Both the position numbers and the translations under genes were made by a program. Source: Promethearchaeota archaeon (lineage in GTDB: Archaea; Asgardarchaeota; Lokiarchaeia; Sigyniarchaeales; SOKP01). From it: a stretch of DNA of 64,000 bases. Each line of letters opens with the position of its first letter. The first letter of the stretch is position 1. The stretch is from assembly GCA_048940445.1 (NCBI GenBank), contig JBHLON010000018.1, positions 1 to 64,000 of the forward strand, written 5' to 3'. This document shows, piece after piece, positions 34,801 to 47,962 of the stretch. The notes beneath the pieces were generated by a model that saw nothing but the letters and a program-made list of their open reading frames with translations, was not told the origin of the DNA and ran no database searches.

Positions 34801-35172
34801 GTGAAGCATAAAAATAAGTTTTACTTATTACTAGCACTTTATCAAGTAGTTTTAGTAATAATTGTGTTTTTTTCGGTAACTGGGTTAGTAACATTTGTCA
34901 GCGCACAACAACCAACCGCTTATGATTATTATAATACTCTAACCGCTGGACTTCTTGGTATTGGATCAGGATTATCTATTGGTTTAGCAGCTATAGGTGG
35001 TGGAATAGCAATTAAGACAGTTGGTACTGCTGTAATTTCTGCAATGTTAGAAAGAGAAGAATCATTCGGTAAAGCTTTTATAGTGGTTGCATTAGGTGAG
35101 GCTCTTGCGATTTATGGGTTAATTGTCGCGATATTATTATGGACAAAAATTCCAACCATCCCAACAGGTTAA
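34801..35172 (+). CDS. atpK: A/V-type ATP synthase proteolipid subunit K (c)
   Basis: Gly-rich hairpin with ALGEALAIYGL carrying the ion-binding Glu; extra N-terminal hydrophobic helix. Confidence 0.92.
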   Translation: MKHKNKFYLLLALYQVVLVIIVFFSVTGLVTFVSAQQPTAYDYYNTLTAGLLGIGSGLSIGLAAIGGGIAIKTVGTAVISAMLEREESFGKAFIVVALGEALAIYGLIVAILLWTKIPTIPTG

Positions 35173-35208: not shown

Positions 35209-36258
35209 ATGAGCGGTGTTATTGTACCTGAATATAGTTATTTATATGTAAAATTGGCAATTTTAAAACAGATTGTATTAAGTAAATCAGAACTTGTTAA
35301 AATACAAACTATCACATCAATTGATGAACTTATAGAGTTCTTAAAGCCGTATTACCCTGATACTTCTTTTAAAATACATTCAATTTCGGAAATCGAAAAA
35401 TCTCTTTATTATAGTTTTTTTAAATTAATTGGGAAAATCCTTGTAAATTCATCAGAAGAATTAAGACAATTTTTAAAGTTTTTTTTAATGAAGTATGAGA
35501 TTTACAATATAAAGAATATAATTCTGGGAACGATTCTGAATAAAACTAAAAAAGAAAAAACAAATGGTACAAATTTTTTAATTGAAGAATTACTAGATAA
35601 TGAAGATTTTATTCGGGAACTTATAAATAAACGTACTATCAACGAAATTCAGTTATATATGAAAAAAACAAATTATTATCAAGTTGTAAAGGAAGGTCTT
35701 GATTTTTATAAGAGAAATCAAGAAATTTTTGTTTTAGCAGTTTATCTCGATAAGTTATACTATGAAGATTTAAGCAGAGTAAAATCCAGATTCAGTAATA
35801 TAGATTTTAAAATAATAGAAACATACATTAATTATGTTGTCGAAATCTATAATCTTAAAATTCTTTACCGTGGGATTAAAAATAATATTGAAAAAAATTT
35901 ACTTTCTCAACTACTTGTAAATAGTTTTTTATTCCTAAATTCAAAAAAATTTAATATTTTATTAAATCAAGAGACAATTGAAGGATTTAATCAATCATTA
36001 ATAACCCTTTTAACGACATCTAAGTCAAAGATATTTCCACCAGATATTTTGAGTAAAAGTGATGAAGATATCATTGCTATATTAAAGAGTATATATGATG
36101 AATACTTTTTAAAGGAATGTCATAAAGAAGTGACGAGTTTAGCTTCACTTACAACAAGTAAAGTTTTAGAATTACTAGTTAAAAAGGAATCCGAGATAAA
36201 AGATGTTTTAATTCCTTTAGTTGTTAATATTATAAATCTGAAATATCAAACTTTATAA
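35209..36258 (+). CDS. atpC: A/V-type ATP synthase subunit C
   Basis: YSYLYVK, KYEIYNIK, LDKLYY, EIYNLKILYRG; operon position. Confidence 0.85.
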   Translation: MSGVIVPEYSYLYVKLAILKQIVLSKSELVKIQTITSIDELIEFLKPYYPDTSFKIHSISEIEKSLYYSFFKLIGKILVNSSEELRQFLKFFLMKYEIYNIKNIILGTILNKTKKEKTNGTNFLIEELLDNEDFIRELINKRTINEIQLYMKKTNYYQVVKEGLDFYKRNQEIFVLAVYLDKLYYEDLSRVKSRFSNIDFKIIETYINYVVEIYNLKILYRGIKNNIEKNLLSQLLVNSFLFLNSKKFNILLNQETIEGFNQSLITLLTTSKSKIFPPDILSKSDEDIIAILKSIYDEYFLKECHKEVTSLASLTTSKVLELLVKKESEIKDVLIPLVVNIINLKYQTL

Positions 36259-36283: not shown

Positions 36284-36595
36284 TTGAATATATTTGATAA
36301 CGTAAAAGACTTAGAGAAAATGTATGAAAATCTCTTAAATGAAGCAAAAGAGAGGCATACAAAAGAATTTCGTAAATTGAGAGAGAAATCTGATAAAATA
36401 ATTGAAGAACGTGTCAAAATATTGGATGAATTTATAAATAAAGTTTTGGAGAATCTTACAATAGAATTGCAGAAAAAAACTAATGAATATAAAAAAACTA
36501 TTGCACAACTATTCCAAAAAATTGAACAAGAATATAAAGAGAATAAAGAAGAGTTTATAAATCAAATAATAAAAATATTGGAGTTACCATTCTAA
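36284..36595 (+). CDS. A/V-type ATP synthase peripheral stalk subunit G/H
   Basis: 103-aa charged coiled coil within the operon. Confidence 0.7.
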   Translation: MNIFDNVKDLEKMYENLLNEAKERHTKEFRKLREKSDKIIEERVKILDEFINKVLENLTIELQKKTNEYKKTIAQLFQKIEQEYKENKEEFINQIIKILELPF

Positions 36596-36924
36596 TGTCA
36601 ACTTCGAATTATGATAGGATTATGGTTTTTGGGAATGAAGAAACAGTAACATTGTTTGAATTATTAGGTATTGAGGGGAAAGTTATTAATGATTTCAACG
36701 AATTTGAATTAGAATTATATGAAATTATAAAAAATCCGATGATTGGAATGATTCTTATCTCCGAAAATATTTTATCAGGTCACTTAGATTTTTATTTAAA
36801 TTTTAAATTGAATAACCCAAAACCTTTTATCTTTTTATTACCCGATATCTTTCAATCGAAAAACATCAATACTGATTTAATCACAAAAAAAATTCAAGAA
36901 TATATAGGAAAAGCCATGCATTAA
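36595..36924 (+). CDS. atpF: A/V-type ATP synthase subunit F
   Basis: IMVFGNEETVTLFELLGIEG, IGMILISE, P.I..LPD, IQEYIG. Confidence 0.9.
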   Translation: MSTSNYDRIMVFGNEETVTLFELLGIEGKVINDFNEFELELYEIIKNPMIGMILISENILSGHLDFYLNFKLNNPKPFIFLLPDIFQSKNINTDLITKKIQEYIGKAMH

Positions 36925-36940
36925 ATAGAGGTGAAAATTA

Positions 36941-37690
36941 ATGGAAGATAGTAATTTCAATTTAAAAAAAGAATTTGGAAAATTAGGATTATATTTAGTT
37001 GAGAATGCAGAAAATGAAATAAAAGAAATTGAACGTAAACAGGTTTTATTAAATTCTAGCTTGAAAAAAAGAAAGAATGAACGAATTGAACAAATTCTAA
37101 ATAAGAAAAAAAAGCAATTTAAAGATCTATATATCTCTGAAATAAATGAATCTACAGTTTCGATCTTATTGGATGTTAAAAATCAATTGTTAGACTTAAA
37201 AAATAAACTAATCTTTAACTTTAAAAATGATTTTAAAAAAGAGATTGCACTCAAAATCTCAAAAAATTATGATCAATATATTAATTATCTGATTAAGATA
37301 ATAAAAGAAAAAGTAGAGGACTTAAAGATTCATAAAAAGACAATATTTATTTTGAATTCTGGTGATTATAATTATCTCAATAATCATAAAGGATTATTAC
37401 AGTCTCTTCAAATAGATAATTATGAATTGAAGAAATCTGAAAAAGAATACATAGGAGGCTACATGTTAAAAATTCCAGAAGAATCATTTATTTTAAATTT
37501 TATGCTTGAAAATCAAATAAATCTAAAAACAAATGAATTTGAATCATTATTGACAGATGAACTATCATCATTAGAGGAAACCTTCTATGAAATAAATGAA
37601 AGATTTGAAAAAAGTATCGCAGATATAAGAAATAATATTCAAATTTATTTAGAAAAACTAGAAGAATTGGTATCGAATGATAAGTTCTAA
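36941..37690 (+). CDS. atpE: A/V-type ATP synthase subunit E
   Basis: N-terminal coiled coil, IGGYML motif; operon position. Confidence 0.82.
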   Translation: MEDSNFNLKKEFGKLGLYLVENAENEIKEIERKQVLLNSSLKKRKNERIEQILNKKKKQFKDLYISEINESTVSILLDVKNQLLDLKNKLIFNFKNDFKKEIALKISKNYDQYINYLIKIIKEKVEDLKIHKKTIFILNSGDYNYLNNHKGLLQSLQIDNYELKKSEKEYIGGYMLKIPEESFILNFMLENQINLKTNEFESLLTDELSSLEETFYEINERFEKSIADIRNNIQIYLEKLEELVSNDKF

Positions 37691-39479
37691 AAAAGGTTCT
37701 ATTGCAAGTATTCATGGATCATTAATTTCAATAAAAGGAATTGAGAAACAAGTAAAACTTCATAATATTGTGAAAGTTGAAAAACATAATATTTTAGGAG
37801 AAGTTTTACAAATTTATCCTGATCATGTGATTGCTCAATGTTTTGAAAATACGGAGAAATTAAGAATTCATGAGGATGTACTTGACTTAGGTTCACCATT
37901 ATCTATGGAACTAGCACCAGGTTTAATTTCGAGTATATTTGATGGTATTCAAAGGCCCTTAAAGGTTATTCATGAACAAAAAGGTGGATTTTTAGAGCGT
38001 GGCATCGAGGTTGAACCACTATCAAGAACAAAGAAATGGCTTTTTAAGCCCTCTAAAAAGATTGGAGATAAAGTAGTAGAAGGTGATGTTATAGGGACTG
38101 TAAAAGAAACTCCTTTAATTGAACATAAAATTATGGTTCCTTTCACTTATTCTGGAATAATCACACAAATCGCCCAAGAAGGAGAATATACGATTTTAGA
38201 AGATATTTATACACTTAAACGAGAGAATGATGTTATTTCATTTCCAATGCTTCAAAAATGGCCAGTTACAAAAGCTAGACCGTTTAAAAGAAAGAATGTT
38301 CCGCAGGAACCTTTAATTACAGGAATTCGTGTAATTGATTTACTATTTCCTATTGCAAGAGGAGGTTGTGTTGCAGTTCCTGGTGGTTTTGGAACAGGAA
38401 AAACGGTAATACAACAATCCTTAGCAAAATGGTGTAATGCAGATATAATTATTTTAGTAGGATGTGGAGAACGTGGAAATGAAATGGCTGATGTTCTAAA
38501 AGATTTCTTGAAAATTATTGATCCCAAAACAAATCGTCCTTTAATTGAAAGGGTTGTTCTCATAGCAAATACATCAAATATGCCCGTTTCTGCGCGAGAA
38601 ATTAGTATTTTTTCCGGTGTTACCATCGCTGAATATTACAGAGATATGGGATATAATGTTGCTGTGTTAGCAGATAGTACTTCAAGATGGGCAGAAGCTT
38701 TAAGAGAAATCTCGGGATTGATGGAAGAAATGCCTGCAGAAGAAGGATATCCCGCGTATTTATCTTCTAAATTATCAAGTTTTTATGAAAGATCTGGTGT
38801 TGTTCAATTAATTGGTTCTGAAGAAAAATATGGTTCTATTACCCTTGTAGGATCAGTGTCACCTCCCTCTGGGGACTTTAGCGAACCTGTTACTGCCACT
38901 ACAAAACGTTTTGTACAAGCGTTCTGGGCTTTAGATGCGAAATTAGCATACTCAAAACATTACCCCGCAATAAATTGGTTAGATTCATATTCAAAATATA
39001 CAGATTATGTTTCAGATTGGTGGTTTGAAAGAAATTTTAATTGGACAGAAATTGACGTAGATTGGACAGAATGTAGAACAAAAGTTGATGAAATTCTCGC
39101 TAAAGAAGCTAATTTAGAAAATATTAGTCAATTAATTGGAGAAGAAAACTTACCAGAAGAACAACAGCTCAGCCTTTTTTTAGCAAACCTCATAAAAAAT
39201 GGTTTTTTAATACAAAATGCTTTTGATGAAATTGACCGATTTACTAACCCTAAAAAGCTATTAGGTATGGTAAAACTTATTTTATTATTTTATAATAAAG
39301 CAAGTGACCTTTTACAATCTGGAGTATTATTAGAAGATATAAAAAGATTAGCTACTATTAATACAATCCTAAGAATTGGTATCACTATACCTAACGAGAA
39401 TTTTGATAAGATAGTCGAAATAAAAGATGATTTAATAGAAGAAATGGAAGATTTAAAACTAAGCTATAGAGAGATATAG
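37677..39479 (+). CDS. atpA: A/V-type ATP synthase catalytic subunit A
   Basis: GGFGTGKT, GCGERGNE, NTSNMP, DSTSRWAEALRE, MPAEEGYPAYL. Confidence 0.97.
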   Translation: MISSKKGSIASIHGSLISIKGIEKQVKLHNIVKVEKHNILGEVLQIYPDHVIAQCFENTEKLRIHEDVLDLGSPLSMELAPGLISSIFDGIQRPLKVIHEQKGGFLERGIEVEPLSRTKKWLFKPSKKIGDKVVEGDVIGTVKETPLIEHKIMVPFTYSGIITQIAQEGEYTILEDIYTLKRENDVISFPMLQKWPVTKARPFKRKNVPQEPLITGIRVIDLLFPIARGGCVAVPGGFGTGKTVIQQSLAKWCNADIIILVGCGERGNEMADVLKDFLKIIDPKTNRPLIERVVLIANTSNMPVSAREISIFSGVTIAEYYRDMGYNVAVLADSTSRWAEALREISGLMEEMPAEEGYPAYLSSKLSSFYERSGVVQLIGSEEKYGSITLVGSVSPPSGDFSEPVTATTKRFVQAFWALDAKLAYSKHYPAINWLDSYSKYTDYVSDWWFERNFNWTEIDVDWTECRTKVDEILAKEANLENISQLIGEENLPEEQQLSLFLANLIKNGFLIQNAFDEIDRFTNPKKLLGMVKLILLFYNKASDLLQSGVLLEDIKRLATINTILRIGITIPNENFDKIVEIKDDLIEEMEDLKLSYREI

Positions 39480-39482
39480 ACA

Positions 39483-40868
39483 ATGAGCGTAACATATAAT
39501 AAAATTAATCAGATAATCGGATCCCTATTATTTTTAAAGAATAATCATGATGTTCAGTTCGGAGAATTTGTGAAAATTATTACTAACACTGGAGAAGAAC
39601 GAAATGGACAAATTATAAGGATGGATGAAGAGGTATTAGTTCTTGAAGTTTTTCAAGATACGACTGGCATATCTTCAGAAAACTCAGATATCGCCTTTAC
39701 GGGAGATTTATTTAAAGTGAAATTATCTAAAGATATGATGGGGGGCACATTTAATTCTTTAGGAAAACCAATTAATATTTATACTAAAAAAACTTTAGAT
39801 TCGGATATAATTTCGGGCGTTGAACGAGAAATTAATGGAAGCCCCATTAATCCATTTGCTCGAGAATATCCTACTGAAATAATTCAAACAGGAATTTCGG
39901 TTATTGATGGATTAAATACACTAATTCGAGGTCAAAAATTGCCCATTTTTAGTGGACAAGGTTTATCTCATAATAATTTAGCAGCTCAAATAGTAACTCA
40001 GGCAAGAGTTTTGACAAATGAACCATTTTTAGTAATTTTTTGTGGGATTGGTTTGCTACAAGACGAAGCTGTATTCTTTTTGGATAAGTTTAAAGAAAGT
40101 GGAAATATAAATAATATCCTATCTTTTTTCAATTTTATAGATGATCCTGTCATGGAGCGTCTTATAATTCCAAGAGTTGCACTTACAGCTGCAGAATATT
40201 TTGCTTTTGAAAAAGATATGCATGTGTTAATTATTTTGATTAACATGACAAATTATGCGGAGGCTTTAAGAGAATTAAGTTCTGCTCGAGAAGAAATTCC
40301 AAGTAGAAAAGGGTATCCGGGATATTTATATTCTGATTTAGCCTCTATATATGAACGTACGGGTAAAATCAAGGGAAAAAAAGGATCAATAACCCAAATT
40401 CCAATTCTTACAATGCCAAACGATGACATAACTCATCCCATTGCCGACACCTCAGGTTATATTACTGAAGGTCAAATAGTATTAAATAGAAGTATGCATA
40501 AAAGCGGAATCTATCCTCCTATTGAATTATTAGCTTCATTATCACGACTTATGAAGGATGCTATAGGAGAAAAAACAACAAGGGCAGATCATGCTGATGT
40601 TGCATCCCAATTACTCGCATCTTATTCGGAGTCTCTGGATGTAAAAGAATTAATTTCTATAGTTGGAGAAGATAGTTTAAATCAATATCAAACATCATTA
40701 TTGAATTTTAATAGAGAATTTGAAGCAAAATTCATAAATCAAGAAGAAACAGAGAATAGAAGCTTTGAAGATACTTTAAATATAGCCTGGAAGGTGTTAG
40801 CAAATATTCGGAAAGAAAACCTTTATAGAATTCATGATGAATTTGTTAAAAAATATTATCCTGGGTGA
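39483..40868 (+). CDS. atpB: A/V-type ATP synthase subunit B
   Basis: RGQKLPIFSG, NYAEALRE, GYPGYLYSDL, DDITHPI, SLSRLM. Confidence 0.97.
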   Translation: MSVTYNKINQIIGSLLFLKNNHDVQFGEFVKIITNTGEERNGQIIRMDEEVLVLEVFQDTTGISSENSDIAFTGDLFKVKLSKDMMGGTFNSLGKPINIYTKKTLDSDIISGVEREINGSPINPFAREYPTEIIQTGISVIDGLNTLIRGQKLPIFSGQGLSHNNLAAQIVTQARVLTNEPFLVIFCGIGLLQDEAVFFLDKFKESGNINNILSFFNFIDDPVMERLIIPRVALTAAEYFAFEKDMHVLIILINMTNYAEALRELSSAREEIPSRKGYPGYLYSDLASIYERTGKIKGKKGSITQIPILTMPNDDITHPIADTSGYITEGQIVLNRSMHKSGIYPPIELLASLSRLMKDAIGEKTTRADHADVASQLLASYSESLDVKELISIVGEDSLNQYQTSLLNFNREFEAKFINQEETENRSFEDTLNIAWKVLANIRKENLYRIHDEFVKKYYPG

Positions 40869-40874
40869 TATTTA

Positions 40875-41510
40875 ATTAGTTTTAGAGAAGTTAAACCAAC
40901 AAAGTCAAATCTAATTAATTTAAAAAAGAAATTAGAATTTGCAATTAAAGGGAAGGATTTATTGAATATAAAACGGGAACAGTTGTTATTTTATATAGAA
41001 AAATATTGGAATGAATATATTTCATTAAAAACGCAGTTTTATAATTTATGGATTGATTCTTTCAGAAAATTAAATTTAACCTATAAAGGAATGGGTAAGA
41101 GATATCTCGATCTTATAAGTACATTAAGTAGAATTCAGTATGACTTCAGAATAAATATTAGAGTAATTAAGAATTTAGGCTTGTTAACACCCAAAATAGA
41201 TTACATTTTTGATGAGCATGAAAAATACCCTTCATATGCTTTTGAGAATACAACTCATCAATTAGATGATTTAATCTCTACTTTAAAAGCCGTTATCAAA
41301 AACATTATGAGATTGGCAGAAATCGAAGATTTAATGATGAAATTTGGATTTGATTTAAAAAAGTTAAATCGACGTATAAATGCTCTTGAAAGTAAAATTA
41401 TTCCGGGGATTGAAACAGATATAAAAAAAATTAAGGATGTTTTGGAAGAAAATGAAAGAGAATCATTTTCAAGATTAAAAAGAATAAAAGAATTAATAAA
41501 TAGTAATTAA
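40875..41510 (+). CDS. atpD: A/V-type ATP synthase subunit D (start extended to ATT at 40875)
   Basis: in-frame extension ISFREVKPTKSNLINLKKKLEFAIKGKDLLNIKREQL matches the subunit D N-terminus; RRINALE..IP; EENERE.F.RLK. Confidence 0.9.
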   Translation: MSFREVKPTKSNLINLKKKLEFAIKGKDLLNIKREQLLFYIEKYWNEYISLKTQFYNLWIDSFRKLNLTYKGMGKRYLDLISTLSRIQYDFRINIRVIKNLGLLTPKIDYIFDEHEKYPSYAFENTTHQLDDLISTLKAVIKNIMRLAEIEDLMMKFGFDLKKLNRRINALESKIIPGIETDIKKIKDVLEENERESFSRLKRIKELINSN

Positions 41511-41532: not shown

Positions 41533-43905
41533 TTGACAGATCTGACTCAATTAAGTTTGTTTGAAGTACTTATCAATGATACGTATAAAGAATCACTACT
41601 GAATTATCTCGCAACAGTAAAAAATGTTCAAATAAGAGAATTAGATATTAAAAAAGAAAAGAAAGAACAAGAAATTTCTATAATTGAAAAAATAAAAAAA
41701 TTACGAACTAACCTAATCTCGTTATTTAACAAGTTAGAAATTGAAGAAATCAACTTAGAACCAGAAAAAAGAATAGATTTTAGAGTAACTTCATTGTACA
41801 ATTTAATCGGATATCTTTCAGATGAAGTAAAATATTTTGATAATAGATTAGCTGAATTAAATGAATATCAAACAAACGCTCAAATAGAACTAGAAAATCT
41901 AAATATTTTGAGAGGAGTTTATAAATTTCTTGAAAAATATGGGATTAATCGTGAAAACATACAAATTTTTAATTTTTTTCAGTTTAAGGTGTTTACGACA
42001 TTCAGTAAAAATATTCCCAATTTAGAATTAGCATTAGATACACTACCTTTTCCAACCATATATCAAACAGAAGATGTTGGAGAAGACAACGTGGCATTTT
42101 TCCTAATTTACCCTAAAAATCAAGAAGAAGCTATTTTTAAGGAATTAAAACTTATACATGCAAATGAAATTTCATTATTAAAAAAATATATAACTAATCA
42201 GGGCATTAATTTTACAAGATTAGAAAAAGAAATTGTCTTGATTTCAAAAAACATCTCACGACTACAAAATGAAAAGAATTCAATTAGAGACAATAATTTA
42301 TTGAAATTTTTTGCTTTCAAAGAAACCATGGAAAATATTGAGCTATATAATTGGAGTGAAAGACAGTTTCTAAAAACATCTTCTAATAATTCACTTCTTA
42401 CATTCTATATTCCCAGTTCTTATACCAAGCAAGTTAGAGAAGAATTGTCGAGAATCTTTAAAGATAAAATCAAAATGGATATTATAGAAATTACAAAGAG
42501 AGTTATGAAAATAGAGGAGGAACCGAAAAAGGAAACAGAAGAAACACATGAAATTGATCAGAGAGAACTTGATATTGCTGAGAGGTTTGTTGATACAAAA
42601 AATTTAAAAAATAAAGCTCCTACGGTTATGAAGCACAAGAGAAAATATATTAGACATTTTGAAGTTCTAACAAAAATGTATGGTGTCCCTGCCTATGCAG
42701 AAATTGACCCTACAATTTTTGTGGCTATCAGTTTCCCAATATTATTTGGTATTATGTTTGGTGATATTGGTCAAGGATTAGCTTTACTAATTGTTGGTTT
42801 AATTGGTGCGAGAATATATAAAAATAAAAAGGAAACTAGATATCACTTTAGCTATATTATTGCCTATTGTGGGATTGGAGCAACTCTAGCAGGTTTAGCA
42901 TATGGTGAATGGTTTGGAGGACATGATATATTTGGATTTACTTTAATTCCTTTATTGATTAATCCTTTAGATAATATATTTTTGATATTCATATTCGCAC
43001 TTTTTGTAGGGATTGTTCAAATTTGCCTAGGATGGTTTATTCAATTTATAAATTATTGGAAACAACATAAAAGATACCTTGCGGTCACCGATTCATTATT
43101 TAAAATTTGGATATTAGTTGCTGCAGGACTTCTGACCAGAATATTATATTTTGATTTTAGTATTGATATTTTTGCGTGGATAGCACCTCCATATCCCATC
43201 TTCTGGTATTTACTTATTCCCATAATTTTATTATTAGTATCAAAACCTTTGGGTAGGCTTCTGAAGATTTCTTATCTAAAACATGAATCATACAAATCCT
43301 TAATGACTGAAGGAACCATGGAAGCATTTGAATTAGTATTATCTACTTTAAGTAATGTCGCATCATATGCAAGGTTGTTAGCTTTGGAAATGGCTCATAT
43401 TGGTTTAATGCTAACTTTTACAGATTTGATTGCATTGATAACTGAACCTGAGTATATATCAAATCTTATCTTAGGTGCAGTCATAGGAGGTGTTGTCGTG
43501 GGAATAATTGGGTTTATAATTATTAAACGTTATAGAATACTCGGTGTTATTATAGGGATACCTTTAGGAATTTTGTTGGGAATTTTTCTAGGAGGTTATC
43601 ACCTTTCAGTGACAGTTGCGTTGATTGGAAGTAATGTTTCTGTAATTGTGCTAGAAGGATTATTAGTATTTATCCATGATCTGAGATTACATTTCTATGA
43701 ATTTTTCTCAAAATTCTATCAAGGATCTGGGATTGAATTTAAATCTTTTATGATGAGCGAAGAGTATTCAAAAATCTATTTTGAAGTAACAGAAAAAGAA
43801 GATAAGATTTCTGAAGAGTTAGAAAAGTTAATCAATCCGCAAGATAAAAAAGACCTTGACAAAGCAAGATCAAAAGTTATTTCAAAATTCATTAAAGAGA
43901 CTTAA
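41533..43905 (+). CDS. atpI: A/V-type ATP synthase subunit I (a)
   Basis: YGVPAYAEIDPT, FGIMFGDIGQG, SYARL (essential Arg), LRLHFYEFFSKFY.G.G. Confidence 0.95.
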   Translation: MTDLTQLSLFEVLINDTYKESLLNYLATVKNVQIRELDIKKEKKEQEISIIEKIKKLRTNLISLFNKLEIEEINLEPEKRIDFRVTSLYNLIGYLSDEVKYFDNRLAELNEYQTNAQIELENLNILRGVYKFLEKYGINRENIQIFNFFQFKVFTTFSKNIPNLELALDTLPFPTIYQTEDVGEDNVAFFLIYPKNQEEAIFKELKLIHANEISLLKKYITNQGINFTRLEKEIVLISKNISRLQNEKNSIRDNNLLKFFAFKETMENIELYNWSERQFLKTSSNNSLLTFYIPSSYTKQVREELSRIFKDKIKMDIIEITKRVMKIEEEPKKETEETHEIDQRELDIAERFVDTKNLKNKAPTVMKHKRKYIRHFEVLTKMYGVPAYAEIDPTIFVAISFPILFGIMFGDIGQGLALLIVGLIGARIYKNKKETRYHFSYIIAYCGIGATLAGLAYGEWFGGHDIFGFTLIPLLINPLDNIFLIFIFALFVGIVQICLGWFIQFINYWKQHKRYLAVTDSLFKIWILVAAGLLTRILYFDFSIDIFAWIAPPYPIFWYLLIPIILLLVSKPLGRLLKISYLKHESYKSLMTEGTMEAFELVLSTLSNVASYARLLALEMAHIGLMLTFTDLIALITEPEYISNLILGAVIGGVVVGIIGFIIIKRYRILGVIIGIPLGILLGIFLGGYHLSVTVALIGSNVSVIVLEGLLVFIHDLRLHFYEFFSKFYQGSGIEFKSFMMSEEYSKIYFEVTEKEDKISEELEKLINPQDKKDLDKARSKVISKFIKET

Positions 43906-43908
43906 ACA

Positions 43909-44349
43909 ATGGAACAGTCAGAGAATAAAACGTCTAAGAAAAAATCTCATGCAGGAATAAGGCTTTTGTTATTAATAATCTATGTCATTTTATTATTTGT
44001 GATTTATCAATTCTTTATAATAACTGAACATAATTTACTGGTTGGAATACTATTAAGTATTTTCTCATTCCTAATTTTTGTAGGTCCTATTTTTCAATAT
44101 CAGAAAACAAAAAGGATGTATCAACGATTATTCCCCGATAAAAATAAAAGAATAAAAGAAAAATATGATAAGAAGCGATTAGAAGAAAAAAAGAAAAAAG
44201 ACTTTGAATTTTATAAAAAGAAAATACCAATGCCAATTGATCTTGAGTACAATTACAAGAAATCGCTGATCCAGAAATGTCTTAATTGTGGAACTATTGT
44301 ACCTAGTTTTGTGAAGAAATGTCCTAATTGTGGAGCATCTCTTGAATAA
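43909..44349 (+). CDS. two-TM membrane protein with C-terminal zinc ribbon
   Basis: two hydrophobic helices, basic linker, CLNC...CPNC; 3-bp gap after atpI. Confidence 0.75.
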   Translation: MEQSENKTSKKKSHAGIRLLLLIIYVILLFVIYQFFIITEHNLLVGILLSIFSFLIFVGPIFQYQKTKRMYQRLFPDKNKRIKEKYDKKRLEEKKKKDFEFYKKKIPMPIDLEYNYKKSLIQKCLNCGTIVPSFVKKCPNCGASLE

Positions 44350-44386: not shown

Positions 44387-46207
44387 ATGACAATGGGATT
44401 AGAAATATCTAATGCTGAAGGTGTTATAACAGGTATAAATGGTACTCTACTTGAAGTTAAAGGATTGGAGGATAATGTGAGATTACATGATTTGGTAAAG
44501 ATTTCTAAACAAAATCTTTTAGGAGAAATCATTCAAATCTATAAAACTTATACTATAATCCAGTCTTTTGAAAGTACCTTAAATTTAAAGTTAGGTCAAA
44601 AAGTTACTTGTTTAAATGAACCCTTATCAATGGAGCTCGGTCCAGGTTTATTAGGAAGTACTTTTGATGGCATACAAAGACCATTAGAAATTACTTTTAA
44701 AGTAAATAAAGAAGGAAAATTGGAAAGGGGTATATATTTTGAACCTTTATCAAGAGAAAAGAAATGGCACTTTATTCCTTGCAAGAAAATAGGTAATATA
44801 GTTGAAGAAGGAGATGTTGTTGGCTCGGTACAGGAAACAGCATTAATCGAGCATAGAATCATGTTACCTCCGGGATACAATGGTGTCTTATCCTTTATCG
44901 TAGATGAAGGGGATTATACCATTATCGATGAAATCTACAAAATAAAAAATGAAAATACAGAAAAATCATTTAGTATGATGCAAAAATGGAAAATTACAAA
45001 AACAAGACCGAGTGCAGAGCTTAAAAGACCAAATATTCCATTAATAACAGGAATAAGAATTATTGACTTACTATTTCCAATAGCGAAAGGAGGTACAATA
45101 GCTATTCCAGGAGGATTTGGAACTGGTAAAACTGTGATACAGCAGTGTTTAGCAAAATATTGTGATGCTGATATTATTATTTATATCGGATGTGGTGAAC
45201 CTGGAAATGAGATTGCAAACGTATTGAAACAATTTACCGAAACAATCGATCCTAATAGTGGGAGACCGATAATGGATAGAATTGTTTTAGTGGTAAATAC
45301 TTCTAATATGCCCGGTTCCTCACGGGAAGCAAGTTTATTTTCTGGAGTAACAATCGCAGAATATTATAGAGACATGGGATATGATGTTGTTGTATTAACT
45401 GATAGTATCTCCCGTTGGGCGGAATCATTGCGGGAATTATCTGGTTTATTAGAAGAGATGCCCGCAGAAGAAGGATATCCTGGTTATTTACCCTCTAAGT
45501 TATCCAGCTTTTTTGAAAGAGCTGGTCTTATAAAAGCATTAGGTAAAGATAAGAGGGACAATGAAAAATTTGGATCTATTTCTATCATTGGTACAATTTC
45601 ACCTCCAGGGGGAGATTTTAGCGAACCAGTTACTTCAGCTGCAAAACGGGTAGTCCAAGGAGTATGGGCTTTAGATCAAAGACTTGCATATCTAAAACAC
45701 TTTCCAGCCATTAATTGGTTGCAATCTTATTCAAATTACCCTGAATATATTAAAAAGTGGTGGAAAAAAATAGATATTGATTGGCCAGAAATAAAATTAG
45801 ATTGGGTAGGTTGCCGTAATCAACTCAATGAGATCCTATCTCAAGAGAGTAACATTCAAAATATTACGCAACTGCTAGGAGAAGGGGGAATACCACCAGA
45901 ACAGAGATTAGAGATAATTATGAACAAAATCATTACAAATGGGTTTTTAATTCAAAATGCATTTGATGAGATTGATGTGTTTACTTCTCCAGAGAAACTG
46001 CTGAGTTTAATCAAACTGTTCCTATTATTTTATAAAGAAGGAAAAAACCGGATTAATAAAGGTTTAGTTATTAACGCTTGGAAATCTGAGCAAGTCATAA
46101 GTGAAATGATTAAGTTAAGGTATTCTATTCCAAACGAAAATTATTCCGAAATAGATTCAATTAAAACCAGAATGATAAACCAATATTTGGATTTGATGTT
46201 TATATAA
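44387..46207 (+). CDS. atpA: second A/V-type ATPase subunit A paralogue with altered catalytic motif
   Basis: colinear with 37677..39479; GGFGTGKT retained; GCGEPGNE in place of GCGERGNE. Confidence 0.93.
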   Translation: MTMGLEISNAEGVITGINGTLLEVKGLEDNVRLHDLVKISKQNLLGEIIQIYKTYTIIQSFESTLNLKLGQKVTCLNEPLSMELGPGLLGSTFDGIQRPLEITFKVNKEGKLERGIYFEPLSREKKWHFIPCKKIGNIVEEGDVVGSVQETALIEHRIMLPPGYNGVLSFIVDEGDYTIIDEIYKIKNENTEKSFSMMQKWKITKTRPSAELKRPNIPLITGIRIIDLLFPIAKGGTIAIPGGFGTGKTVIQQCLAKYCDADIIIYIGCGEPGNEIANVLKQFTETIDPNSGRPIMDRIVLVVNTSNMPGSSREASLFSGVTIAEYYRDMGYDVVVLTDSISRWAESLRELSGLLEEMPAEEGYPGYLPSKLSSFFERAGLIKALGKDKRDNEKFGSISIIGTISPPGGDFSEPVTSAAKRVVQGVWALDQRLAYLKHFPAINWLQSYSNYPEYIKKWWKKIDIDWPEIKLDWVGCRNQLNEILSQESNIQNITQLLGEGGIPPEQRLEIIMNKIITNGFLIQNAFDEIDVFTSPEKLLSLIKLFLLFYKEGKNRINKGLVINAWKSEQVISEMIKLRYSIPNENYSEIDSIKTRMINQYLDLMFI

Positions 46208-46477: not shown

Positions 46478-47962
46478 ATGATACTTCAAGGTCTTTTTAA
46501 TATTTTAGAACTTTATTCAGATCAAGAAGATTTTTTTTATGAAAATATTGATAACTATTTTCGGAATCTATTAAACCACAATTTTAAAAGTTTTTCAGGC
46601 AAATATGAAGATCTCTTGAGAATTACAGAGGAAATTGTAAAAAAATTCAAAACTGAAATTGTAAAATTAGGTTTTGATAAAGATGAAATTGATAATAAAT
46701 TCTCTGGTCGGTTTTTGAATTTTACTAAAGCAGACTTAGAGGAATTAACAACAATTGAAAAACTCTACAGAAAAGTAATCGCTCCGATTGTTTATGAAAT
46801 TTTTTTAGAAGTAATTTTATATTATATCGCTGATTTAGAGGTTGAATCATTAATTTTAAATCTAAAATCCAAAGGATTTCTCCCCATTGAATTTATCTTA
46901 GAACTCGGTAATTTAAAGAAACTTTATTCACAAACTCCTGAAAAATTAGAAAATCTCCGGAAATATATTAAAGTCAAGGATGAAATTATTGCTAAATTTA
47001 GGAGTAATAAAACTAAAATAGAGACCTTGGAGAATATTAGTGAAGTTCAAGATAAATTACAATTATTATATTTAATTTACAGAATTCTTGATTTTTTCCA
47101 ATTTGTGGGGTTCTTTGATTTTTCGCATTTAAAAAATTATATCGAGGAGAATCAGAATGATTGGTTATATTCTCTCCCAATTGTAACTTTGAAAAATCCA
47201 GATCTTTATTTCTGTGGAATATATTTAGCAAATAGATTTAGTATTCAACTAAAAACTGAAAAAATTAACAATTTTTTAAATGAATTATATGGTGAATTTA
47301 TTGATGAATTTGAAGCCCCTATAGCCGAAGCAACCACTAAATTATATTATTTCTTTAAATCAACAGAAATAATGGGTTTCTGGTTGCCGATAGATAAACT
47401 TGCTCCTTTAATACATCGTGATGAGAAATTTTTCAATTCTAATTATCTTAAAGATTGTGAGACCTCTCAGTTAGCTGTTATTGTTAAGATACTTTATGTT
47501 CTTAACATTCAGAATAAAATCGAGCCTTCAATTTTAAAGAGTTTAATCGAAGAGATTGAGCAAAGAGTCACTCCAGAAGGAATCAAGCATCATAGAGATG
47601 GGTTTGTATCCTCAGAGTCAACATATTATGTTATTTTCTTAAATTATATGAGAAACACTTTAGATAATTTAAAGGACTACGATCTTTTAGACTCGATTAT
47701 CACTAGAATTTATAGAAACTTAGAACTCATAAATTTTTCAAGTGAAACTAACCATGATCTAGTAAGTGAAATCTTTTATTCTGTTGAAAGTTTAAAATTG
47801 TTCAATTGCATTGAAACAAAAGAAATGATTACTCACCTAGTAAAATATTTATTCCCACAAGAAGTTGTAGATAAAATAGTAAACAGCGAAAAAATAACGG
47901 AAACAGAGGCAAGGTTCAAACATTTGAAAGTCAATCGAATTTCTGGTGAAACTGTATATTAA
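46478..47962 (+). CDS. hypothetical all-helical protein
   Basis: 494-aa ORF; C-terminal half may be an alpha-alpha toroid, not established. Confidence 0.7.
   Translation: MILQGLFNILELYSDQEDFFYENIDNYFRNLLNHNFKSFSGKYEDLLRITEEIVKKFKTEIVKLGFDKDEIDNKFSGRFLNFTKADLEELTTIEKLYRKVIAPIVYEIFLEVILYYIADLEVESLILNLKSKGFLPIEFILELGNLKKLYSQTPEKLENLRKYIKVKDEIIAKFRSNKTKIETLENISEVQDKLQLLYLIYRILDFFQFVGFFDFSHLKNYIEENQNDWLYSLPIVTLKNPDLYFCGIYLANRFSIQLKTEKINNFLNELYGEFIDEFEAPIAEATTKLYYFFKSTEIMGFWLPIDKLAPLIHRDEKFFNSNYLKDCETSQLAVIVKILYVLNIQNKIEPSILKSLIEEIEQRVTPEGIKHHRDGFVSSESTYYVIFLNYMRNTLDNLKDYDLLDSIITRIYRNLELINFSSETNHDLVSEIFYSVESLKLFNCIETKEMITHLVKYLFPQEVVDKIVNSEKITETEARFKHLKVNRISGETVY

Follow-up and report, generated by a model that had tools for sequence, protein, structure and literature searches.

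The ATPase locus and its second subunit A gene

The stretch of DNA analysed here (the window, the first 64,000 nucleotides of contig JBHLON010000018.1) carries a V/A-type ATPase operon in the order K-C-H-F-E-A1-B-D-I, followed by a gene encoding a small zinc-ribbon membrane protein and, 37 bp further on, by a second gene for subunit A, hereafter A2 (Table 1). A preliminary description of this DNA had presented A2 as a full-length, uninterrupted atpA paralogue, and our analysis agrees: the ORF encodes 606 amino acids without interruption and its product shares 57% sequence identity with A1 across 597 residues. Against the NF003220 profile A2 scored 705.6 bits, for a cut-off of 470, while TIGR01043 was uninformative here because A1 (781) also falls below its cut-off of 972, as does A2 (698). 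Four domains, PF02874, PF16886, PF00006 and PF22919, correspond to the beta-barrel, the non-homologous region, the nucleotide domain and the helical C-terminal domain. The single-chain model of A2 (mean pLDDT 67) matched subunit A of E. hirae V1 with an E-value of 6e-57 and a TM-score of about 0.77; its pLDDT is below 50 at residues 341-370 and 405-455, and given this low confidence in the nucleotide pocket we make no claim on pocket geometry. The best 25 matches of A2 comprised only rotary and export ATPase families, with no homology to a known inhibitor.

Table 1. Features of the ATPase locus and of the A2 gene (positions in the window).
Feature	Coordinates	Strand	Evidence or remark
Subunit K/c (proteolipid)	34801..35172	+	PF00137
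Subunit C	35209..36258	+	PF01992
Probable subunit H/G	36284..36595	+	Inferred from position and size; no informative Pfam match
Subunit F	36595..36924	+	PF01990
Probable subunit E	36941..37690	+	Inferred from position; no Pfam match
A1, canonical subunit A	37677..39479	+	Profile, alignment; Arg266 (CGT at 38472-38474)
Subunit B	39483..40868	+	Sole B of the assembly; arginine finger R355 (40545-40547) invariant
Subunit D	40962..41510	+	PF01813 from profile position 22; true start probably upstream
Subunit I/a	41533..43905	+	PF01496
Small membrane protein, C-terminal zinc ribbon	43909..44349	+	37 bp upstream of A2; also in operons without A2
A2, second V/A-type ATPase subunit A, Arg-to-Pro in catalytic loop	44387..46207	+	ORF, profile, fold
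Walker A / P-loop, residues 241-249	45107..45133	+	Alignment; Gly and Lys invariant in A2
Catalytic Glu271	45197..45199	+	Invariant, 46/46 A2
Pro272 (CCT), replaces phosphate-binding Arg	45200..45202	+	Pro 46/46 A2, Arg 61/61 family A1-type
NMPGSSRE variant	45305..45328	+	Limited to the sub-lineage of the window genome; not a class feature
Leu317, class-diagnostic	45335..45337	+	Leu 46/46 A2, Ile 61/61 A1-type
Walker B Asp339	45401..45403	+	Invariant, 46/46 A2
Leu436, class-diagnostic, 3 residues before adenine-stacking aromatic	45692..45694	+	Leu 46/46 A2; Ser/Ala/Glu in A1-type
Trp-rich segment, family-wide insert of about 6 residues	45758..45817	+	Common to A1 and A2
Rotor-side loop, residues 498-503	45878..45895	+	Acidic and near-fixed in A1-type; decayed or charge-reversed in A2

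The window assembly is 93% complete and holds two A genes and one B. The order A1-B-D-I-Zn-A2 recurs wherever contigs allow, A2 being operon-terminal in nearly all contexts read and lying 16 to 59 bp behind the zinc-ribbon gene across relatives, which is consistent with co-transcription. Upstream of A2, a sigma-70 scan, which does not model archaeal promoters, found no excess of hits (74 versus 90.9 in shuffled sequence). Exceptions to the common arrangement are G213 and G214 (L296, L297), where a more diverged A2 stands alone outside the operon, and the closed chromosome of G238 (L294, L295), where A1-B-D lies at about 2.19 Mb and I-Zn-A2 at about 3.05 Mb. At least 11 genomes of the family have an intact locus that lacks A2, the zinc-ribbon gene being followed directly by its next neighbour. 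In seven A2-less genomes (L144, L145, L147, L148, L149, L155, L161) the zinc-ribbon gene overlaps a convergent tRNA-intron endonuclease gene by 4 bp at the stop codons, so that no remnant of A2 remains there. Four genomes were candidates for having A2 alone, all with A2 on broken contigs, and among them none was established to lack A1.

Throughout the family the zinc-ribbon gene comes after subunit I, whether A2 is there or not, and so it does in three closed sister-family genomes. A role as dedicated partner of A2 is thus not supported; its product may be an additional subunit or an assembly factor for the ATPase of Lokiarchaeia. Each of the five genomes checked (G000, G205, G213, G214 and G238) has one full-length B, meaning that A1 and A2 would have to share it, and a second ATPase in which A2 has its own B is not supported. 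A separate 187-aa frame in G238 (C1:440338-440694) is 42% like the C-terminal quarter of subunit B. The ion-binding helices of the c subunit, compared by eye, are alike with and without A2, and a different coupling ion in A2 carriers was discarded. The predicted lengths of D, E and C vary widely among relatives and the D of the window begins at Pfam position 22; these lengths and the gaps at 40868-40962 and 36924-36941 are consistent with non-canonical start codons. On the 3' side of A2, positions 46478-47962 encode a 494-aa protein that matches no family above cut-off; in several relatives a homologue adjoins the ATPase operon, on one side or the other.

Reality and distribution of the Arg-to-Pro substitution

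The GCGERGNE motif of A1, with its CGT codon, reads GCGEPGNE in A2, with CCT, as had been noted. One base separates the two codons and several lineages have no A2, two facts that would suit a sequencing error or a functionless duplicate heading for decay. This explanation has next to no chance of being correct. The other members of the 90% cluster of A2, drawn from NCBI, JGI, ENA and Logan assemblies, have Pro in all cases (6/6), and the A2 orthologues use the four Pro codons (CCT 15, CCA 7, CCG 3 and CCC 2 among 27 sequences), so that a sequencing error was rejected as the source of Pro272. The expectation of decay is further contradicted by frames that are open throughout, by a dN/dS of about 0.13-0.15, by a synonymous divergence between A1 and A2 that is saturated and by the presence of Pro in about 80 genomes.

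Among the best 120 homologues, 82 have Pro and the remainder Arg. A search with the back-translated motif retrieved the Pro form from 80 of the 135 genomes of the window's Promethearchaeota (Lokiarchaeia) family, in 7 genera, and from none of the 265 other Asgard genomes searched; this pattern missed the motif variant of the G277 A2. The lineage-specific duplication that had been proposed is supported, as is a conserved group of GEPGNE proteins. Of the 80 metagenome matches to the motif listed, 77 fall in A2-type subunits A and 3 are chance hits. Public databases already hold examples, annotated as ordinary subunit A (TKJ26939.1, UCC19410.1) or as hypothetical (KKN09010.1). The GEPGNE motif of A2 is real and conserved.

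Residues that distinguish A2 from A1

Residue statistics were taken from an alignment of 46 A2 with 61 family A1-type sequences. Position 272, which aligns with the phosphate-binding Arg of P. horikoshii A, is Pro in every A2, with no orthologue having Arg, and is one of three fully class-diagnostic columns, R272P, I317L and position 436 (where every A2 and no A1-type sequence has Leu), whose residues are all fixed in A2. In addition, the Phe at position 422 of A1-type sequences is replaced by Val, Leu or Ile in all A2, and Asp278 mostly by Asn. In the diagnostic columns, no A2 protein has acquired a basic residue that could compensate.

The rest of the pocket is intact, as the preliminary description had observed for Walker A, the catalytic Glu and the Walker B Asp. 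In the P-loop GxxxxGKT, Gly and Lys are found in 46/46 A2, the last position being Thr in 43 and Ser in 3; K248, E271, E275, D339, R343 and the aromatic residue 439 are invariant or nearly so. Of these, E271, E275, D339 and R343 are fixed in A2 and A1-type sequences alike, as are the P-loop Gly and Lys and most of both B-facing loops. At the position of the catalytic Glu, the subunit B of this operon has Ile. What is missing from A2 is thus the Arg that binds the gamma-phosphate or Pi, and the Pro in its place is not free to vary.

Two other features put forward earlier stand only in part. The change from NMPVSARE to NMPGSSRE is present in the A2 of the window but was rejected as part of an A2 signature: V310 is kept in 43/46 A2 and A312 in 44/46, while GSSRE occurs in two copies, both in the G000/G023 sub-lineage. 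Judged by the alignment it is local lineage drift, and it drops out as an argument for impaired catalysis. The Trp-rich insert is indeed common to both copies, but it amounts to about 6 additional residues, and the Trp residues that flank it are found in P. horikoshii A as well. It marks the A subunits of the family generally (and G055a), irrespective of A2, and the sister-family genomes examined lack it.

Predicted interface with subunit B, and rotor-side loop

The predicted A2-B pair reached an ipSAE of 0.65, versus 0.00 for the best control, and so attained a mark that 58 of 80 solved complexes reach, against 2 of 110 mismatched pairs; as this is a textbook pair, the score may reflect resemblance to known structures and shows likeness rather than binding. 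The runs share at least 93% of contacts, with a partner pLDDT of at least 85, and the predicted contacts, at the catalytic interface, include A2 residues 272-278 and B residues 350-356. In the nucleotide domain, residues of the B interface have a conservation of 0.935 in A2 and 0.978 in A1. Pairing of A2 with the shared B is plausible on this model. A replacement of B by A2 was rejected: position 450, equivalent to the arginine finger that B keeps as R355, is Asn in 42/46 A2 and another residue in the remaining 4, never Arg. Six columns of B differ, none of them cleanly and with kinship as a confounder, and co-evolution of B with A2 was not retained either.

The C-terminal helical domain is looser in A2 (identity 0.51, versus 0.64 in A1), and its loop 498-503 is equivalent to the DELSEED loop by which F1 beta contacts the rotor. 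A single acidic hexapeptide occupies this loop in 58/61 A1-type sequences, whereas A2 has 25 variants. The acidic residue at position 500, present in 60/61 A1-type and 9/10 outgroup sequences, is retained in 2/46 A2 and replaced by Lys or Arg in 33/46. From the decay of this loop, A2 may never meet the rotor.

Origin and selection of A2

In the tree, the majority of Pro copies fall into a single clade, in which the subgroups of the Arg copies recur. A constraint placing all Pro copies together was not rejected (p-AU 0.395), which is no proof of a clade, and because of the weak backbone a single basal duplication in the family is indistinguishable from an origin in one lineage with early spread. 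On the tree of the other subunits, the presence of A2 changes at least 5 times.

The preliminary description had suggested a search for purifying selection, and A2 is under such selection, with a dN/dS of 0.145 compared with 0.122 for A1 (Nei-Gojobori counts, 16 non-overlapping pairs). For the same pairs, values are 0.082 and 0.067 in the nucleotide domain, and 0.192 and 0.145 in the C-terminal domain, for A2 and A1 respectively. In genus g8 (G048 and G201) the dS between A1 and A2 is 0.43, versus 1.16-2.17 elsewhere, and codons 312-330 of G048 are identical in both genes save codon 317. Despite this homogenisation, the g8 A2 copies are still A2-type at P272, L317, V422 and L436. Read from the sequences, either gene conversion spared the diagnostic sites or a separate duplication converged on them; under either history these residues appear to be selected.

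In other genomes the locus shows signs of recombination. G017 has A2 while its sister G019 has none (L126, L148), and between G017 and G032 the dS of A2 (0.79) is lower than that of A1 (1.17) and B (1.34). For the G014/G013 pair (L116, L118), the dS of A2 is 0.29, versus 0.05-0.07 for A1 and B.

Further peculiarities of subunit A were encountered in Asgard genomes. In G044, a 97% complete genome of the same family, the sole subunit A found (L153/L303, G044:C32:43138-44928) has its catalytic Glu changed to Ile and an altered P-loop and NTPNMP, in an operon without the zinc-ribbon gene and without A2; it could be a decaying ATPase or an assembly error. G008 and G031, two genomes of one genus (L167, L168), have a different operon, A-B-D-x followed by K and I on the opposite strand, and their A groups outside the family, which suggests replacement by transfer. 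Subunit A matches in G232, G210, G211, G058, G070 and G078 lie in open frames of 1120-1160 aa and are probably intein-containing. About half of the genomes G095-G119 (family f10, another Asgard genus) have two subunit A matches and no Pro motif, probably owing to second ATPase operons.

Possible functions of A2

From the GER motif and the alignment with P. horikoshii A, we take position 272 of A2 to be that of betaR182 in E. coli F1 and of R262 in E. hirae V1. The latter touches the terminal phosphate of ATP (PMC6371843). In E. coli F1 the activity is 0.020 umol/min/mg for betaR182Q and 0.25 for betaR182K, versus 42 for the reference, and both mutants lose ATP synthesis and Pi binding while MgADP binding is kept (PMC3268026); these values concern an F1 enzyme with Gln and Lys substitutions, not Pro. 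Moreover, F1 halts once one beta is inhibited or mutated (PMC10949317).

We propose, as the likeliest reading, that A2 acts as a pseudo-catalytic subunit: it would bind nucleotide, pair with the shared B and bring the head to a stall or park it. We consider this proposal to be evenly poised between right and wrong. A2 would dock on B via the normal catalytic interface, bind Mg-ADP while binding ATP and Pi weakly, and be unable to form the transition state. Rotary catalysis depends on all three sites, so that even one A2 would stall a head, and in both directions; indeed, the E. coli mutants lose synthesis as well as hydrolysis (PMC3268026), so that such a brake would not be specific for hydrolysis, unlike the brake on wasteful ATP hydrolysis suggested in the preliminary description. 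The cell would make A2 sparingly or conditionally, throttling or parking ATPase heads when energy is scarce, which would prevent futile ATP hydrolysis and ion leak through the coupled enzyme. A rotary head built of three kinds of subunit (A1, A2 and B), a motor regulated by its subunit composition, is a possibility to which we would give slightly less than an even chance.

Several observations count against a stalled head. Under random assembly the proportion of working heads is (1-f)^3, with f the share of A2, that is 73% at f=0.1 and 12.5% at f=0.5; equal co-expression would leave only the latter, and the short distance to the zinc-ribbon gene is consistent with co-transcription, so that an unseen control of the expression or assembly of A2 would be required. 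The possible lack of contact with the rotor, the retention of the catalytic Glu in all A2 and the intact loci of relatives that do without A2 weigh in the same direction.

The invariant catalytic Glu keeps in play a working isoform, slow or one-sided, in which Pro and the co-fixed L317, L436, V422 and N278 would remodel the site, with Lys248, Arg343 and the arginine finger of B carrying the phosphate. The outcome would be a head running in low gear, with a poor affinity for Pi and a bias towards hydrolysis or pumping, and used under other conditions. Such an isoform would remove the poisoning cost of co-expression, and it would account for catalytic residues that are invariant or nearly so and for a nucleotide-domain dN/dS near that of A1. 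We nevertheless judge it rather unlikely, as the change of Arg to Lys alone lowers the activity of E. coli F1 about 170-fold (PMC3268026), the A2 proteins have no basic residue in compensation at the diagnostic columns, A2 is not established in any genome without A1, and the rotor-side loop has decayed. The decayed loop leaves room for A2 as an assembly placeholder or decoy: it would bind free B in A2-B dimers or rotor-less rings, acting as a chaperone, a store or a means of sequestration, and would give way to A1 before the enzyme becomes active. Here catalytic deadness would be an asset, and the N-terminal barrel and the B-facing surface of the nucleotide domain are constrained as in A1, whereas the C-terminal domain is looser, in identity and in dN/dS, and has lost its acidic loop. 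The same operon, however, is managed without A2 in close relatives, B has no clean co-varying change, and a placeholder has no obvious need of an invariant catalytic Glu; we regard this explanation as unlikely. Finally, the position of A2 outside the operon in G213 and G214, on a long branch, might indicate that it no longer belongs to the ATPase and serves on its own as an adenylate sensor or scaffold. This is highly improbable, given that A2 is operon-linked nearly everywhere else, that it stays with I-Zn in G238 where the operon splits, and that its predicted B interface is kept.

Comparison with known rotary ATPases

By its full domain set, including the non-homologous region, and by its fold, Walker A and B motifs, catalytic Glu, adenine pocket and predicted B interface, A2 is a V/A-type subunit A like those of P. 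horikoshii (3M4Y/1VDZ) and E. hirae (NtpA, 3VR2-6), and NF003220 describes it as such. It differs from them in having Pro for the phosphate-binding Arg (R262 in E. hirae), a decayed acidic loop on the rotor side, the co-fixed L317, L436, V422 and N278, and a normal A beside it. A2 is thus a subunit A by descent and fold that has lost one defining catalytic feature, and should not be filed as a working catalytic subunit. Subunit B of A/V-type enzymes and F1 alpha resemble A2 as paralogues of the catalytic subunit that lack a catalytic residue and are kept by selection, but A2 retains the catalytic Glu and Walker A, has no arginine finger and would occupy an A position. For subunit B, the absence of a recognisable Walker A has been reported (10.1101/2023.04.11.536006). 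The E. coli F1 mutants and the hybrid F1 with one dead beta share with our proposal the loss of the same Arg and the halting of the motor by one dead site (PMC3268026, PMC10949317), but they are laboratory F-type enzymes without Pro, whereas A2 is a natural, selected paralogue.

IF1, epsilon, zeta, subunit H of V1 and Oxr1/TLDc are small or peripheral proteins that bind reversibly, and several of them act on hydrolysis only. The role proposed for A2, silencing the head to save ATP, is the same, but these proteins are unrelated to A2, which would sit in the ring and block both directions. A full-text literature search, with most subscription papers beyond reach, returned no description of a Pro-type A2, nor did a keyword search find it in two ATP synthase phylogenomic papers; it is apparently undescribed.

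Across A- and V-ATPases, the A3B3 head and its three equivalent catalytic sites are regarded as invariable. If our proposal holds, a selected pseudo-catalytic A, carried by over half the genomes of a large Asgard family, would represent a new control of the rotary motor, in organisms that live at very low energy flux and stand close to the origin of the eukaryotic V-ATPase. A2 offers a natural experiment on the beginnings of a non-catalytic subunit, with a short list of residues to consider (P272, L317, V422, L436 and N278). A dead A paralogue swapped into the ring would then be an off-switch for energy-starved life in sediments, a mode of regulation that has not been described in rotary ATPases, and it would repeat, in recent times, the ancient split between catalytic and non-catalytic subunits.
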